A stretch of 64,000 nt of DNA from a bacterium. Lineage in GTDB: Bacteria > UBA8248. The stretch lies in assembly GCA_965207065.1 (NCBI GenBank), contig OZ242260.1, positions 2,810,017-2,874,016 of the forward strand. Direction: 5' to 3'. Shown here piece after piece: positions 55,104-60,967 of the stretch; position 1 is the first letter of the stretch, and the number at the start of each line of letters is the position of its first letter. The notes below the pieces were generated by a model. It did no database searches. It had not been told where the DNA came from and worked only from the letters and a program-made list of their open reading frames with translations. A program made the position numbers and the translations under genes.

Positions 55104-56246
55104 ATGCAGGACGATCTTTATTTGAACGACGAGCAGAAGATGGTGCGTCAGATGACGCGGGATTTCTGCGAGCGCGAGATCGCTCCCCGGGCGTCGGAGA
55201 TAGACGAGGGCCGCTTCCCGGCGGAGGTCGTGAAGAGCATGGGCGAACTCGGGCTGATGGGCCTCACCGTGCCGGATTCCTACGGCGGAGGGGGCGCGGA
55301 CCCCGTCTCGATGGCGCTGGCGACCGAAGAGGTTGCGGCCGCGTGTCCTTCGACGAGCGCGATTTTCGCCGCGCACAACTCGCTGGTCTGCGAGCCTGTC
55401 CATCGCTTCGGCAGCGAGGGGCAAAAAGAACAATTTCTGCGCGGCCTGGCGAGCGGTGTGTGCATCGGCGCATTCGCCCTGACGGAGCCGGGCGCGGGTT
55501 CGGACGCCGCCTCGCTCACCACCAGCGCCGTGCGCGAAGGGGACGCCTACCGCATCAACGGCGTCAAGCGCTTCATCACCAGCGGCAAGCAGTCGGGCCT
55601 GTGCCTTCTCTTCGCGGTGACCGATCGCGCCATGCGCCACAAGGGGCTGAGCGCCTTCCTGGTTCCGCGCGAATCCCGAGGCTTCGAGGTCGTGCGCAGC
55701 GAGGACAAGATGGGGATGCACGGCTGTTCGATATCAGAGCTTCGCTTCGACGCCGTGGAACTGCCCGAGGCGAACCGCATGGGGGAGGAGGGGCAGGGCT
55801 TCGAACTCGCGATGCGGATACTCGATTCGGGTCGTATCATCGTCGCAGCCCAGGGTCTGGGCTTCGCGCGGGCGTGTCTCGACGCCTCGGTGGCCTATGC
55901 GCGCGAGCGCGAGACGTTCGGCGTCCCGATCAAGGATCACCAGCCTGTTGCGTGGAAGCTCGCTGACATGGCCACGCGCGTCCACGGCGCGCGTCTGCTC
56001 ACCATGAAGGCGGCGCGGCTCAAGGCGGCTGGCGCGCCCTATTCGGCCGAAGCCTCTATCGCCAAGGTGTTCGCCACCGACGCCGCCCAGCGTAACGCGG
56101 AAGAAGGCGTTCAACTCCACGGGGGCAACGGCTACATGCGCGAGTATCCCGTGGAGCGCTTCTACCGGGCTTCGAAGGTGACGCAGATCTACGAGGGCAC
56201 GAACGAGATACTCCGTCAGGTCATCGCCAAGCACCTGCTCAACTGA
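55104..56246 (+). CDS. acyl-CoA dehydrogenase
   Basis: ACAD motifs (FALTEPGAGSDAAS, QIYEGTNEI); start set to ATG 55104 after ggagg. Confidence 0.85.
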   Translation: MQDDLYLNDEQKMVRQMTRDFCEREIAPRASEIDEGRFPAEVVKSMGELGLMGLTVPDSYGGGGADPVSMALATEEVAAACPSTSAIFAAHNSLVCEPVHRFGSEGQKEQFLRGLASGVCIGAFALTEPGAGSDAASLTTSAVREGDAYRINGVKRFITSGKQSGLCLLFAVTDRAMRHKGLSAFLVPRESRGFEVVRSEDKMGMHGCSISELRFDAVELPEANRMGEEGQGFELAMRILDSGRIIVAAQGLGFARACLDASVAYARERETFGVPIKDHQPVAWKLADMATRVHGARLLTMKAARLKAAGAPYSAEASIAKVFATDAAQRNAEEGVQLHGGNGYMREYPVERFYRASKVTQIYEGTNEILRQVIAKHLLN

Positions 56247-56300
56247 AAAGAAACCCGCCCGCCGCCCATTATCGAGTAACATTCAAGTAAGAAACTGTTT

Positions 56301-56364
56301 TGTCGCTCACGTATGAACGACAAAGCTGTTTGTCGCTCACTTTTGGGCTAAAGTGAGCGACAAG
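56301..56364. repeat. direct repeat + hairpin upstream of fic (copy 1)
   Basis: gctcacgtatgaacgacaaagctgtttgtcgctca (56306-56340) repeated at 57611-57646 with one mismatch; 11-bp-stem hairpin ttgtcgctcac/gtgagcgacaa. Confidence 0.5.
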
Positions 56365-56437
56365 AGCATCGTCGATTTCATTTTCAAGAGAGAAATTGTA
56401 ACATTAAGGGCTAGTTCCGGGGTGACTGAGTGCTTTT

Positions 56438-57610
56438 TTGCGCGTTGACAGTCATCATCATTCACCAATGTATAAAGAGTTTTGGAGAGGACTGATGCCT
56501 CCGGTTCATTACCACGAAGGGCGTTTCCCCCCGGAGAAAAGCCTCGATTGGGGAGCGCTGGCACCGTTACTCGGCCCGGCGGCTGCGGCTCTGGCGCGCT
56601 ACGACGAGATACTCAACGTCGTTCGTAACCCCGAATTATTGCTTGCGCCCTTGACTACCCAGGAGGCGGTGCTCTCCTCGCGCATCGAGGGCACCCAGGC
56701 CACCATGGGTGAGGTATTGGAGTTCGAGGCGGGGCAGGAGGTGGACTCTCCCGAGCGTCGTGACGACATTGAAGAAGTACGCAACTACCGCACCTCGATG
56801 AGAGAGGCGGAGGAGATGCTCACCGCACTCCCGCTGTCCTTAAGAGTCGTCCGAGAGGCGCATCGCGTATTGCTTTCCGGGGTGCGCGGGAGGAACAAAT
56901 CTCCCGGTGAGTATCGGCGTATCCCGAATTGGATCGGGCCGCCAGGGTGTTCCATCGATACCGCCAAGTTCGTGCCCATCGGGGCGGAGAAGCTCGACGA
57001 GGCCATGAGCGCATGGGAGCGCTATATCCACCAGGAAACGCCCGATCTGCTGGTGCAGGCGGCCGTCCTGCACGCTGAGTTCGAAGCCCTGCACCCTTTC
57101 CTGGACGGTAACGGTCGCCTGGGGCGGATGCTGGTTCCTTTGTTTCTATGGCAGCGCGGTCTCATCAGCCGTCCCATGTTCTACATCAGCGCCTATTTCG
57201 AGGCGCATCGCGATGCGTATTACAATGGGTTGCTCGCCGTCTCGCGCGACGACGATTGGACGGGTTGGTGCAAGTTTTTTCTCGAAGGAGTGCGAGTGCA
57301 GGCGGAGGACAATCTCGCCAAAGCCCGGGCCATTCTCGAGCTTTACGAGGACATGAAAATACGTGTAACGGAATTGACCCGCTCCCACTACGCCGTCCAC
57401 GCCCTGGACTGGATTTTCGAGCGTCCGATTTTCCGCAGCATTCATTTTGTGAACACGGCGGACATCCCTGAGCCGACGGCGCGCAGGGTGTTGCGAGTGC
57501 TTCGGGAAAATGAAATCCTGAATGTTGTCAGAACCGGGAAAGGCCGCCGCTCGACGATTCTGTCGTTTCCTGACTTGCTAAACATTGCGGAGCAAAGAAA
57601 GCTGTTTTAA
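56438..57610 (+). CDS. Fic family protein (AMPylase), class II with N-terminal inhibitory motif
   Basis: Fic active-site motif HPFLDGNGRLGR; N-terminal SSRIEG matches the (S/T)xxxE(G/N) inhibitory-helix motif. Confidence 0.85.
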   Translation: MRVDSHHHSPMYKEFWRGLMPPVHYHEGRFPPEKSLDWGALAPLLGPAAAALARYDEILNVVRNPELLLAPLTTQEAVLSSRIEGTQATMGEVLEFEAGQEVDSPERRDDIEEVRNYRTSMREAEEMLTALPLSLRVVREAHRVLLSGVRGRNKSPGEYRRIPNWIGPPGCSIDTAKFVPIGAEKLDEAMSAWERYIHQETPDLLVQAAVLHAEFEALHPFLDGNGRLGRMLVPLFLWQRGLISRPMFYISAYFEAHRDAYYNGLLAVSRDDDWTGWCKFFLEGVRVQAEDNLAKARAILELYEDMKIRVTELTRSHYAVHALDWIFERPIFRSIHFVNTADIPEPTARRVLRVLRENEILNVVRTGKGRRSTILSFPDLLNIAEQRKLF

Positions 57611-57646
57611 TGCTCACGTATGAACGACAAAGCCGTTTGTCGCTCA
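57611..57646. repeat. direct repeat downstream of fic (copy 2)
   Basis: Begins immediately after the fic stop codon; degenerate related copies continue to about 57690. Confidence 0.5.
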
Positions 57647-57718
57647 TTTATGGACGAAAATGATTGACAAAACCATTTGTTGTGCATTTATTAACGACAT
57701 ACGCATCTCCGCCCAGTC

Positions 57719-58414
57719 ATGGAGATGAATAAGCCGATGTCAGCCTCACGTTTTCGTTCGAAAGGTTTCTGGAAGAAGCGGACGCCTCGCGCGCGCTTGC
57801 GCCGCCATGTGGCGCTCGCCATCGTCCTCGCATTCTTCGTCAGCGGCTGCGTCACGCCCACGCCGAGGCGGCAGGGGAACATCTGCGAGATTTTCGACCA
57901 GCAGCCCGACTGGTACGACTACGCCCGCGCGTCCGAGAAACGCTGGGGCACGCCGGTGCACGTGCTCATGGCGTTCGTGAAGAAAGAATCGAGTTTCCAG
58001 AGCCACGCGAGGCCGCCCATGCGGTGGTTCCTGTTCATCCCGCTCGGCCGCCCCTCCACGGCGCTTGGCTATGCGCAGCCCCTGAACCAGACCTGGGGGG
58101 ACTACAAGGCGGAGCGCGGCAGCTGGCTGAGCAGCCGCACGCGCATGAAGGATGCGCTCGACTTCGTCGGCTGGTACAACGCCAAGTCACGGCGCGAACT
58201 GGGCATTTCCCTGAACGACGCGCACAGGCTCTACCTCGCCTATCACGAGGGAAGGGGCGGCTACCGGCGCGGAACGTGGAAGAAAAAGCCGAAAATCCGC
58301 CGCGCGGCGCGGCGCGTGGCCGAGACCGCCCGGCTCTACAAGGCCCAGCTCGCGCGCTGCGAATCGAGGTTCCGGTGCGATTCGTGGTATCAGGTCTGGC
58401 CCTTTTGCCGCTGA
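57719..58414 (+). CDS. hypothetical lipoprotein
   Basis: Basic N-terminus, hydrophobic segment and lipobox-like FVSGC; no recognised domain. Confidence 0.45.
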   Translation: MEMNKPMSASRFRSKGFWKKRTPRARLRRHVALAIVLAFFVSGCVTPTPRRQGNICEIFDQQPDWYDYARASEKRWGTPVHVLMAFVKKESSFQSHARPPMRWFLFIPLGRPSTALGYAQPLNQTWGDYKAERGSWLSSRTRMKDALDFVGWYNAKSRRELGISLNDAHRLYLAYHEGRGGYRRGTWKKKPKIRRAARRVAETARLYKAQLARCESRFRCDSWYQVWPFCR

Positions 58415-58424
58415 GGATTACTGA

Positions 58425-59105
58425 ATGATTCCGTACCGTATTCTTAAATGCCCTGCGATTGTCCTCTGCGTTCTGACCGCCTTTCTCATCCTTACTCCCG
58501 GCGTTCTCCTGGCGCAGGAGATCGTGCTCGGCCGCTTCTCGGCGGGCGACCTCTCCGGCTGGGAACCCAAGAGTTTCGAGGGCGAGACCAGGTATCGACT
58601 CGTCAAGTTGCGAGGCGGCGAAACGGTCCTCGAAGCGGTGAGCAACGCGGCTGCGTCCGGCCTGGTGCTCAAGCGGAAGATCGACCTCACGAAAACGCCG
58701 ATTCTCATCTGGCGCTGGCGGATCGAGCGCCCCGTCAACCCGCCGGATGAGTTGTCCAAAGAAGGAGACGACTTCGCCGCCCGCGTCTATTTCCTGGCGC
58801 CCGGCGCCGGCTGGCTCTCTTTTCCGGATTCGGTCGTCTACGTCTGGGCCAGCGGGCAGCCTGTAGGCTCCGCCTGGCCGAACCCCTACACCAAGAAGGC
58901 CCACATGGTCGCCGTCGATTCAGGCGCGGGCCTCGCCGGGCAGTGGCGGACCCATCGCCGGAACATGCGCGCGGATTTCAGGCGCTACTTCGGCCGCGAC
59001 ATCACCGAGATCACCCACATCGCCATCATGACCGACACCGACAACAGCAAGCTCTCGGCCCGCGGCTGGTACGGCGATATCCGCGTCGCCTCCGCCGGAC
59101 CATAA
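58425..59105 (+). CDS. secreted hypothetical protein (possibly DUF3047-like)
   Basis: Signal peptide (MIPYRILKCPAIVLCVLTAFLILTPGVLLAQ); family assignment tentative. Confidence 0.45.
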   Translation: MIPYRILKCPAIVLCVLTAFLILTPGVLLAQEIVLGRFSAGDLSGWEPKSFEGETRYRLVKLRGGETVLEAVSNAAASGLVLKRKIDLTKTPILIWRWRIERPVNPPDELSKEGDDFAARVYFLAPGAGWLSFPDSVVYVWASGQPVGSAWPNPYTKKAHMVAVDSGAGLAGQWRTHRRNMRADFRRYFGRDITEITHIAIMTDTDNSKLSARGWYGDIRVASAGP

Positions 59106-59138
59106 AATAAATCGAACTAACCAACAGGAAATTAAATC

Positions 59139-59768
59139 GTGCATGTAGCCGTGATCGATATAGGAAGTCCTAAGAATAATAATATCGGTTGGGCTCTCGT
59201 GGGCGATAAAGCCGATTGCGGTACTAATCTGGACGAGTGTGCGAAAGTTCTCGCCCAAGTGCTTAAAACTGAACCCTTGGCACTTGGTTTTGAGGCTCCG
59301 ATGTTCGTACCTATGAGAAATGAGCCTTTTAGTCTAACGAGCGCACGTTGTGGCGAGACGGGGGAGGGTATTAGTAGACCATTCTCGGCCAGCGCTGGCG
59401 CCTCAGTCTTGGTCACTTCTACGGTGGTCGTGCCTTACGTTCTTCGTTGTCTCAGGAAAACTGTTCCAGACGTGACGGCGACGCTTGATTGGAATGGCTG
59501 GCCAAATGAACCCAGACAATCGAGTCGGATGCTTCTATTTGAGGCTTTTGTCACGAACCAGGATAAAGCTAGGCAGCACTTTGAAGATGCCCGGTTGGCG
59601 GCTAAGGAACTCTACACCAAGCTCAGGGGCAATAAGAAAATCGAATCATCTGTGACGGTAGATAAATGTTTCAGTATTCTCGGTGCCATGATGTTGCGGA
59701 CTGGATTGTCTAAGGATATTTCTGTGCTATCTCAACCATGTTTAGTAGTCAGGCCAAACACTGAATAG
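59139..59768 (+). CDS. hypothetical protein with RNase H-like (RuvC/YqgF-type) N-terminal motif
   Basis: N-terminus MHVAVIDIGSPKNNNIGWALVGD resembles RuvC-I/YqgF motifs; gene is markedly lower in GC than its neighbours. Confidence 0.45.
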   Translation: MHVAVIDIGSPKNNNIGWALVGDKADCGTNLDECAKVLAQVLKTEPLALGFEAPMFVPMRNEPFSLTSARCGETGEGISRPFSASAGASVLVTSTVVVPYVLRCLRKTVPDVTATLDWNGWPNEPRQSSRMLLFEAFVTNQDKARQHFEDARLAAKELYTKLRGNKKIESSVTVDKCFSILGAMMLRTGLSKDISVLSQPCLVVRPNTE

Positions 59769-59814
59769 TGAAAGAGTTATAGTTCCACGTATGTGTTGAC
59801 ATGGAGCTACCCAG

Positions 59815-60654
59815 CTATTCGCCGGGCTGTTCCTTGTTTTTTTCGATGGCCGCCATCGCCAGTTCGCGGTCTTCGGGGTCTTCCACGCGGCGCGCGGTAT
59901 CGAGAGCGGCGTCGATTTGCCCCTCTTGCGCCTGCGCCAAGGCGATATCCCGGTAAGCCCAGGAGCGATATGGAGCTTTACCGATGCCGCTTGCGGAGTT
60001 GAGAGCGACGGGGAAATCTCCTGCGTTCGCCTGGACCGTCGCGATTTCCTGCAAGGCCCAGGAGCGCCAGGCAGGGTCGCCGATTTCACGGGCGTTCTGA
60101 ACGGCTGCGGTGAAATCCCCCGCCTCGGCCATGCCCATGACGCTTCGCCACGCATTTTCGGAAAGGCTTTTCTCGTCGCGGATCTCCTCGATCGCCTCCA
60201 GAGCGGCGTTCAGCGTGTGGGAGGCGATGGCGGCGGCGGGACCACTCTGGATGGCGGAGAAGTGCTTGAGCGCCTGCATTTGATCGTCGGGGTCGTCGAT
60301 GCGGCGTATCGTCTCGATGGCTTCGCTGATTTGTCCCGCCCTCGTCTGCGCAATGGCGATTTCACGCAAGGCGGAGGCGTAAAAAAGAGCGCTTCCGATG
60401 CCTCGCGCGGTCTCGATAGCGGCGTCGATATCCCCCGCCTGCGCCTGTGAGCCGGCGAGCTCACTCAGATGAATGGAGCGGTTGGTGATTTCGCTCAGGA
60501 ATCGCGAGATTTCGGCCTCGGGCGTGAGCTCCCGGCCGTCGAGCGTCTCCTCCCGGATTTCCGCGCTTTCCGGCAGGAAAGAAGCCGGAGGCTTCTCCTC
60601 GGCTTCGCTCGAATTCCCCATAAATCGCATCAAACTCCGAAAAATGTTTCTCAT
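59815..60654 (-). CDS. TPR-like helical repeat protein (tandem paralog 1)
   Basis: Repeated about 31-aa units (A..A..IGDP..RS.AL.EIA.AQA.AG); about 90% identical to 60968-61819. Confidence 0.6.
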   Translation of the reverse strand: MRNIFRSLMRFMGNSSEAEEKPPASFLPESAEIREETLDGRELTPEAEISRFLSEITNRSIHLSELAGSQAQAGDIDAAIETARGIGSALFYASALREIAIAQTRAGQISEAIETIRRIDDPDDQMQALKHFSAIQSGPAAAIASHTLNAALEAIEEIRDEKSLSENAWRSVMGMAEAGDFTAAVQNAREIGDPAWRSWALQEIATVQANAGDFPVALNSASGIGKAPYRSWAYRDIALAQAQEGQIDAALDTARRVEDPEDRELAMAAIEKNKEQPGE

Positions 60655-60967
60655 CTGGGTCCTCGTCTATCGGTATGAGAGATTTCATATTGAACGCGAT
60701 GTTTTTCCACAGGATTGATATCGTTAGCCTTGTTCTAAGCAGTCATTATCATCTCGTTTGTTTTGATTTGCAAAAGAAAAAGCACTCAAGAAGCCGAGAT
60801 TACGTATTATCGCCATAGATATTATATTGTAAATACCAATATTTATAGGATTACTATGAATCGAGGCTGATGCCGAACAGGCAGGGTCGGTGAGAATGCG
60901 CGCTCATCTTTGCTCCTCGATCGCCTCGGCGAAGCGCTCGGCGATGTCGGCGGCGCGGCTTGGCGCG

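Follow-up and report, generated by a model that had tools for sequence, protein, structure and literature searches.

The stretch of DNA analysed here, referred to as the window, comprises 64,000 nucleotides (nt) of contig OZ242260.1 from a bacterium of the lineage UBA8248, and it contains a fic gene that is flanked on both sides by copies of a direct repeat (Table 1). The 35-mer GCTCACGTATGAACGACAAAGCYGTTTGTCGCTCA is found at positions 56305-56339 and again at 57612-57646, with no other copy in the 64-kb window and no match in 100 shuffles. These two exact copies, located solely beside fic, bear out an earlier sequence-only reading of this DNA, in which 35-mer direct repeats were reported to bracket the gene. 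The 35-mer is enclosed in a longer direct repeat of 78 nt, the two copies of which are 82% identical. Some details differ from that first description, which placed the downstream repeat at the first base after the stop codon and the upstream repeat approximately 100 base pairs (bp) ahead of the gene. The downstream 35-mer begins 2 nt past the TAA (57608-57610), and the enclosing 78-nt repeat begins before the stop, at 57599, taking in the last fic codons. The upstream distance is correct only for a start at an in-frame TTG (56438), which lies upstream of the homologue-supported ATG at 56495; relative to this ATG, the upstream copy ends ~130-155 nt before the gene.

The 35-mer and the 78-nt repeat are real, and are built of phased palindromes composed of a 10-bp half-site of the form TTG-N5-CA, which in the window reads TTGTCGCTCA. 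The repeat resembles the 3' end of fic because the first half-site overlaps the stop codon. Downstream of fic, the palindromes follow one another in the order A-B-A', and the degenerate third palindrome (A') lies on the side of the gene where degenerate extra copies had been noted. The hairpin with an 11-bp stem that had been noted on the other side is also present, with 11 pairs, and is accompanied by a second one formed by upstream palindrome B, which has perfect 14-bp arms (56330-56363) and a 6-nt loop. An 11-nt version of the half-site, TTTGTCGCTCA, occurs seven times in the window with up to one mismatch (1.3 occurrences expected), and six of the seven are at the fic flanks. No clusters of these boxes were found away from fic in the 64-kb window.

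Table 1. Features of the fic locus, in window coordinates.
Feature	Position	Strand	Remarks
Upstream direct-repeat copy	56292..56369	none	Degenerate fic 3'-end stub, palindrome A, palindrome B; aligned with the downstream copy and with those of L001 and L215
Palindrome A, upstream	56299..56324		11-pair stem; half-sites TTGTCGCTCA (56300-56309) and TGAACGACAA (56314-56323); 14 bp from start to start
Palindrome B, upstream	56329..56364		Half-sites 56330-56339 and 56354-56363; spacing 24 bp
Promoter-like element, TTTCAT-N17-TAACAT	56376..56404	+	Putative, recognised by eye; 12 nt past upstream palindrome B
fic	56495..57610	+	371 amino acids; predicted SoFic-type class II Fic enzyme
C-terminal winged-helix region	57380..57607	+	Predicted from the AlphaFold model and Foldseek matches to SoFic, CccR and CbFic2
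Predicted recognition helix (codons)	57470..57508	+	Residues 326-338, EPTARRVLRVLRE; residues 327, 330, 334 and 337 co-vary with the half-site
Downstream direct-repeat copy	57599..57676	none	Last fic codons, stop, palindromes A and B
Palindrome A, downstream	57607..57630		Degenerate left half-site TTAATGCTCA (57607-57616), which holds the stop TAA; right half-site TGAACGACAA (57621-57630)
Palindrome B, downstream	57637..57670		Half-sites TTGTCGCTCA (57637-57646) and TGATTGACAA (57661-57670)
Possible SLT_4 promoter	57664..57692	+	Putative, recognised by eye; TTGACA in the right arm of B, N17, TTTATT in A'
Palindrome A', downstream, degenerate	57677..57700		Half-sites TTGTTGTGCA and TTAACGACAT; register +66 and +80
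SLT_4 transglycosylase lipoprotein (neighbour)	57719..58414	+	Start 19 nt past the array; outside the element

The protein encoded between the two repeat copies is, judged by its sequence, a SoFic-type class II Fic protein with predicted AMP-transferase activity, and it belongs to a known family of anti-phage toxins. Pfam searches match Fic (E = 4e-18) and Fic_N (E = 2e-24), and the PADLOC SoFic model matches over its full length (E = 1.2e-111). The nearest solved relatives are the SoFic structures (3eqx, E = 7e-34), and a Foldseek search with the full-length AlphaFold model returned SoFic (3eqx, TM score 0.81) as well as CccR (7xux) and CbFic2 (8cil). The score against the NCBIfam equivalog model ProtAdlyltaseSoFic (166.8 bits, compared with a cut-off of 550 bits) places the protein in the same broad family as SoFic but not as an equivalog of it. 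The inhibitory-helix motif (S/T)xxxE(G/N) is present as SSRIEG (residues 61-66), and the Fic motif HxFx(D/E)GNGRxxR as HPFLDGNGRLGR (residues 200-211). Across 42 homologues, residues S61, R63, I64, E65 and G66 of the former and H200, P201, F202, D204, G205, N206, G207, R208, G210 and R211 of the latter are invariant. At the C-terminus, the AlphaFold model (pLDDT 86.7) predicts helices at residues 300-309, 315-321 and 326-338, a strand at 312-314, and wing strands at 343-346 and 355-357, which together form a predicted winged helix with the helix at 326-338 as the recognition helix.

The exact window protein has no record in the contig index, and its homologues were used for comparison. The resulting set comprises 83 fic loci, which are drawn from more than 12 phyla and represent several unrelated gene contexts. 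The Fic homologues are 66-90% identical across phyla, and their hosts include Nitrospinota, Gammaproteobacteria, Alphaproteobacteria, Latescibacterota, Dehalococcoidia, Acidobacteriota, Gemmatimonadota, Fibrobacteria, Spirochaetes and Binatia, among others. In 82 of the 83 loci, at least two boxes are located directly 3' of the fic stop. Arrays upstream of the gene are also present in 18 of the loci. When two mismatches are allowed, the fic flanks contain 11.2 boxes per kb, compared with 3.4 per kb elsewhere, and a single exact box was found outside the flanks in ~640 kb of non-flank locus DNA. The boxes are phased with respect to one another: half-sites in convergent (plus/minus) orientation are 14 or 24/25 bp apart, those in divergent (minus/plus) orientation are separated by 16 bp, and those on the same strand by 30, 40 or 70 bp. 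They are also phased with respect to the gene, since half-sites recur at -4, +10, +26, +50/51, +66 and +80/81 relative to the fic stop. The half-sites of palindrome A are in register at -4 in 40 loci and at +10 in 24, and those of palindrome B at +26 in 46 loci and at +50/51 in 52. In the family loci, positions 2-4 of the first half-site are supplied by the stop codon, TGA. The B-A unit is tandemly expanded with a period of 70 bp in some genomes, reaching 8.5 copies in L017 (L029, L060 and L061 are similar).

The genes surrounding fic and its array differ widely from genome to genome (e.g., a type I hsdM whose stop overlaps the fic start, MmeI-like enzymes, or a large N6_N4 methylase followed in order by fic, the array and a ResIII/DEAD helicase), and in Dehalococcoidia as well as the window lineage the context consists of metabolic genes. 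Across the 83 loci, fic alone is a constant companion of the arrays; no other gene is conserved beside them. The downstream array is the ancestral, family-wide part of the element, and the upstream copy is a duplicate, specific to its lineage, of the fic 3' end together with its array. Dispersed intergenic palindromes of the kind known as repetitive extragenic palindromes or bacterial interspersed mosaic elements were considered as an identity for the boxes and rejected, given that the window boxes cluster only at the fic flanks and that a single exact box was found in ~640 kb. The sequence-only reading had named a common intergenic element unrelated to fic as the result that would speak against its interpretation, and the boxes are instead confined to the flanks of this gene. 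A search of the arrays for a small open reading frame (ORF) encoding an AS1-like antitoxin revealed none that is conserved, and the reading frames are closed across the array in most loci. The right arm of palindrome A contains an ATG, and the ORFs that begin there vary in length between 10 amino acids and run-on frames of >1,000 amino acids; this ATG is missing in 21 of 46 loci.

The central part of the half-site varies from lineage to lineage. Within any one locus the boxes are all of a single variant, and this variant changes together with the predicted recognition helix of the adjacent Fic protein. With the loci taken as they are and kinship ignored, position 7 of the half-site is G in all 208 half-sites from the 24 loci whose protein has arginine at residue 327, compared with 28 of 216 half-sites where the residue is proline. 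Counted by locus, G predominates at position 7 in 26 of 26 loci with R or K327 versus 5 of the 49 other loci. A second pair is formed by residue 330 and position 6, which is G in 377 of 470 half-sites with R or K330 and in none of 12 with Y, Q or H330 (by eye, L072 and L034 follow the same pattern). When mutual information was calculated for all 371 protein columns, the highest values for position 7 were those of residues 327, 334, 337 and 332, and the top column for position 6 was residue 330. All of these residues are located in the predicted recognition helix, approximately one helical turn apart. In L064 (5129-5750) and L028 (5117-5740), both from Bryobacterales, the intact gene is followed by a stacked, partial second fic 3' end. 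L064 provides an internal control: its partial copy comprises residues 241-356 and carries a different recognition helix, and each C-terminus is followed by its own type of box: the intact fic, with P327, by boxes with C at position 7, and the partial copy, with R327, by boxes with G at this position. The arrangement in these two loci suggests that modules consisting of the winged helix and the array have been swapped or duplicated by recombination.

Taken together, the repeats are probably arrays of operator-like sites ("Fic boxes") that are read by the C-terminal winged helix of Fic itself, a predicted binding that is proposed because the arrays travel with fic across phyla and because the half-site co-varies with the recognition helix. 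The earlier suggestion that the repeats are operators for an unseen regulator thus stands as far as operators are concerned, but the evidence points to the winged helix of the adjacent gene product rather than to an unseen protein. Fic dimers would recognise the half-sites as palindromes, spaced by 14 bp (type A) or 24 bp (type B) in the order A-B-A'. On the upstream array, such dimers might tune the transcription of fic. The downstream array begins within the stop codon and lies directly ahead of the next gene, which in most other genomes is a restriction or helicase gene, and dimers bound there might gate read-through into this gene or its promoter; alternatively, several Fic dimers could be assembled on the DNA beside the gene.

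There are several points that weigh against this reading. The link between Fic and the boxes is correlative in this subfamily, and the R327 class may occupy only one to three clades of a rough neighbour-joining tree, but a signal concentrated in a single helix is hard to ascribe to shared ancestry alone. A conserved array 3' of the gene is an unusual site for an autoregulatory operator, and the upstream copy in the window sits upstream of the putative -35 element and not over it. The two spacings of 14 and 24 bp would require either a flexible dimer or two modes of binding. Finally, phage-like contigs and restriction-modification loci contain similar A-B-A arrays and no full fic, and the mismatches in type B palindromes (72 G.T versus 39 A.C) would agree with a degree of selection on the RNA.

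The last of these points relates to a different explanation, in which the palindromes exert their effect within the fic transcript, as RNA hairpins (e.g., as a stabiliser in the 3' untranslated or intercistronic region, a terminator, a processing site or an RNA antitoxin-like element). In operon contexts the array is transcribed between fic and the next gene. Palindromes are bound to fold by virtue of their design, and for the upstream copy in the window the fold is much better than for shuffled sequences (-35.9 kcal/mol, z = -6.0). However, the upstream copies lie outside the likely transcript, and the downstream array of the window, which is the family-wide one and part of the mRNA, folds no better than shuffles (z = -1.5, with 15 of 200 as good). 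It is sequence more than pairing that is conserved: in a comparison of 122 palindromes of type A and 117 of type B, transversion mismatches were frequent at interior stem positions, and position 4 is paired in only 52 of the 122 type A palindromes, which show no excess of G.T over A.C. The wobble test for hairpins was uninformative for type A and only mildly skewed for type B, where the excess of G.T mismatches given above was observed. In addition, all hairpins of a locus switch variant together and track the recognition helix, which is not what a pure pairing constraint predicts. There is no Rfam match at E <= 1 in the region 55500-58500, and the array is not followed by the T-run typical of a terminator. 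The hairpin explanation is consequently considered improbable; sites on DNA that are bound by a protein are favoured, with some role at the RNA level possible.

Arrays without fic bear on the question of whether Fic is the only protein that reads the boxes. A scan for type B palindromes yielded 12 viral and at least 120 metagenome matches. Twenty-four of the metagenome matches adjoin Fic homologues (43-67% identity), most of them with B in the canonical position after the stop; in three of the 24, the palindrome is located upstream of or inside fic. A further 31 matches have room for fic on both sides and lack it, some being stubs (L134, L213 and L111) and some chance palindromes in coding sequence. 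Others of these matches without fic are true A-B-A arrays, situated in phage-like contigs (with DUF932 and L5-gp82-like genes) or in restriction loci. It would be conceivable on these grounds that some other protein, be it a host factor or a regulator whose gene lies elsewhere, occupies the boxes in place of Fic, with fic merely under its control. Such a protein could account for the occurrence of the same A/B phasing without a full fic in phage-like contigs (L087, L089, L136, L142 and L174), as well as for arrays that have no fic and lie ahead of or after hsdS (L187 and L120) or between a methylase and an AlbA_2/HATPase_c_4 gene (L123 and L152). On the other hand, the contexts of the arrays differ and no other gene is conserved beside them in the 83 loci, the half-site co-varies specifically with the Fic recognition helix even within one locus, and several of the arrays without fic (L134, L213, L111 and L215) are fic remnants. 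A different binder in place of Fic therefore seems to have little chance of being the answer. The arrays without fic leave room for a second reader protein, or for action in trans by a Fic protein encoded elsewhere; in the phage contigs, they could serve as decoys, be acted on in trans as targets, or provide sites for a different protein.

Two groups of these arrays are described here as observations. The viral and metagenome contigs L087, L089, L136, L141, L142 and L174 contain A-B-A arrays with 14/16/24-bp phasing and no fic (e.g., L089:3175-3260), and these arrays adjoin a TAATTA-rich repeat near genes for DUF932, L5 gp82-like and RuvB-like AAA proteins. In the metagenome contigs L123 (1950-2111) and L152, an A-B array without fic is located between the terminator that follows an N6_N4 methylase and the start of an AlbA_2/HATPase_c_4 (Schlafen-like) gene, which is the slot that fic occupies in other restriction-like operons. 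The AlbA_2/HATPase_c_4 protein encoded beside one such array was considered as a second reader and rejected, having no significant similarity to the Fic winged helix and with AlbA_2 adjoining only 2 of the 83 fic loci. A regular-expression search of the stored flanks for a Fic-like recognition helix near arrays without fic gave one doubtful match 5.8 kb away, and no Fic-like winged helix was found there.

If Fic reads the boxes, they would provide a DNA motif for this enzyme family together with a recognition code (residue 327 with position 7, and residue 330 with position 6) that could be checked by one or two point mutations. The start within the stop codon and the 70-bp repeat would point to a nucleoprotein complex of several dimers and not to ordinary occlusion of a promoter. 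Short inverted-repeat arrays arranged in tandem beside the gene of their binder are also found in plasmid centromeres (sopC, after sopB, of plasmid F, and parC of R1). The likeness to sopC and parC concerns the mode of action, i.e., a nucleoprotein complex of several dimers, and not family membership; unlike these centromeres, the window element has no ParA/ParB-type partner, is located on a chromosome, and would be bound by an enzyme toxin. Given that the array directly precedes the next gene in many restriction-like operons, Fic might also regulate adjoining defence genes.

For the related proteins CccR and SoFic, binding to their own operators is already known. What is new here is the defined box, the phased A-B-A and 70-bp architecture, the conserved 3' position with its start within the stop codon and the co-variation of helix and box; no description of any of these was found in the literature searched. 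CccR of Yersinia pseudotuberculosis is a class II Fic protein that carries a helix-turn-helix at its C-terminus and acts as repressor of its own promoter by way of an inverted repeat (PMC9755527). The window protein matches it in structure (7xux), the CccR dimer binds an inverted repeat of 10-bp half-sites beside its own gene, and in the window family, too, inverted-repeat half-sites adjoin fic as in CccR-type self-operators. The two proteins share ~18-19% identity in the structural alignment, and the operator of CccR is a single one, AGATAATCAT-N26-ATGATAATCT, that covers the -35 and -10 boxes. The window family differs in having several phased palindromes (14/24 bp), a different half-site, a 3' array over the stop codon and the 70-bp expansion. 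The upstream array of the window ends 12 nt before the promoter-like element recognised by eye, the consensus scan detected no promoter, and the family-wide array is 3' of the gene.

Dimeric SoFic (SO_4266 of Shewanella oneidensis) binds a 100-bp stretch immediately upstream of the gene that encodes it, and it AMPylates EF-Tu (bioRxiv 10.64898/2026.07.09.737422). SoFic is the best structural and profile match to the window protein (3eqx, PADLOC SoFic), with only ~26% identity, and neither a binding motif nor a 3' array has been described for it. In Escherichia coli, the reported partner of Sofic is the small downstream protein AS1 (PMC12249575), whereas the array of the window family holds no conserved ORF. 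The third structural match, CbFic2 of Coxiella burnetii (8cil), is likewise a class II Fic protein with a C-terminal winged helix, and its AMPylation and deAMPylation are controlled by a dimerisation that DNA binding induces (PMC10628234). In CbFic2 the DNA ligand alters both the oligomeric state and the activity, and this precedent offers, by analogy, a possible role for an array of sites linked in cis. The comparison is limited by the facts that CbFic2 bound random DNA without a defined motif, is a secreted effector acting on host histones, and has no known cognate array. In SoFic, AMPylation is under the control of dimerisation, and in CbFic2 it is DNA that brings dimerisation about, so that an array could in principle gate the toxin: it would be a DNA scaffold that captures newly made Fic dimers beside the gene and sets their oligomeric state, with the arrays of phage contigs serving as decoys or triggers. 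This reading, in which the array is more than a simple operator, is speculative and unlikely.

More distant members of the SoFic superfamily show related arrangements. In E. coli FORC_043 (NZ_CP016828.1), ~8 tandem 70-bp palindromic units with a TGTCGAT core (L219:834-1420; palindromes CATCGACAC...GTGTCGATG and TAAACATGT...ATATGTTTA) are located directly upstream of a SoFic-type fic gene (L219:1423-2499), to which the query fic DNA matches at ~71%. The exact array is found in >200 E. coli genomes, with many places per genome because of the tandem units. The period of these units is the same as that of the window family, and a shared 70-bp period in such a distant locus hints, by analogy, at a defined complex of several dimers. 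SoFic is a widespread single-gene anti-phage system, and the E. coli loci with 70-bp upstream arrays offer a tractable model. The SoFic homologue of the Salmonella plasmid p96A29192-65 (L218) lacks a 3' array and has boxes of the TGTCGAT type upstream of fic; the 3' position is therefore not universal across the SoFic superfamily. Downstream of this fic gene there is an unannotated ORF of ~75 codons (L218:2528-2755) that may correspond to AS1 (PMC12249575).

The history of the locus in relatives bears on the other suggestion made in the sequence-only reading, namely that the repeats are the boundaries of a small cassette that delivered fic. In relatives with 88% and 77% Fic identity, the gene order is aminotransferase, acyl-CoA dehydrogenase, fic, SLT_4 and DUF3047. 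L001 contains one upstream copy and three tandem units of ~145 nt downstream, and L002 and L007 contain fic without the upstream copy, with a spacer of only ~50 nt between the dehydrogenase and fic. A search for an empty site by means of SLT_4 homologues yielded three contigs, two of them non-syntenic (L216 and L217) and one syntenic (L215). L215, the one relative without fic that was found, has the same gene order; what remains of fic is approximately the last 34 codons (codons ~338-369; tblastn E = 3e-5), and palindromes A and B come next. The retained 3' end means that fic was ancestral here and that L215 lost the gene through a 5' deletion. The ~1.3-kb insertion of fic precisely at the repeats, for which the relatives were compared, was not found.

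Direct repeats that act as recombination sites or as boundaries of a mobile cassette, either integron-like or excised between array copies, would fit the observations that Fic is 66-90% identical across phyla, so that the unit of fic and array moves horizontally, and that a fic 3'-end stub is part of the upstream copy. Recombination in the region is also evident from the stacked partial fic 3' ends and arrays of L064 and L028 and from the expansion and contraction of the arrays in tandem. Nevertheless, the order of acyl-CoA dehydrogenase, fic and SLT_4 is kept down to 77% Fic identity, and two such relatives lack the upstream copy. In L215, the remaining fic codons are joined right after the dehydrogenase stop, as expected of an internal deletion, and in many loci the fic start overlaps the stop of the upstream methylase in an operon-style junction. 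No integrase or transposase was detected in the Pfam results for the immediate neighbours (window, L001, L002 and L215), and no attC-like GTTRRRY core is visible at the boundaries on reading the sequence. A mobile cassette is thus a highly improbable explanation of the repeats. The upstream copy in the window was probably produced as a duplicate of the fic 3' end and its array by unequal recombination of the kind that also enlarges the arrays and stacks partial fic 3' ends in L028 and L064.

The two promoter-like elements listed in Table 1 were recognised by eye; a consensus scan found no sigma-70 promoter and called neither of them. The first is kept in L001 and L003-L006 as TTTCAT/TTTTAT-N17-TATGAT, TATCAT or TATGTT. 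The right arm of palindrome B (TGATTGACAA), from which the TTGACA of the second element is taken, is conserved in the window lineage. The hits of a scan for terminator-like structures were only partial overlaps of the palindromes. In the region 56415-56494, which is the likely 5' leader of fic, there is a conserved GC(T)6-7G run with a G+C-rich segment, ggggtgactgagtgcttttttgcg, ahead of it; both are also found in L001 and L003-L006, and the conserved run could be an attenuator or a binding site. Further downstream, two patches of low G+C content (59000-59800 and 60600-60900; 0.38-0.53 compared with ~0.65 around them) were observed. The first, which may be foreign DNA, contains an ORF of 209 amino acids (59139-59768, plus strand) for which neither Pfam nor NCBIfam gave a match. 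On the minus strand, at 59815-60654, an ORF of 279 amino acids consists of repeats of ~30 residues (AIETARGIG, YASALREIAIAQTRAGQI) that resemble HEAT or TPR-like repeats.

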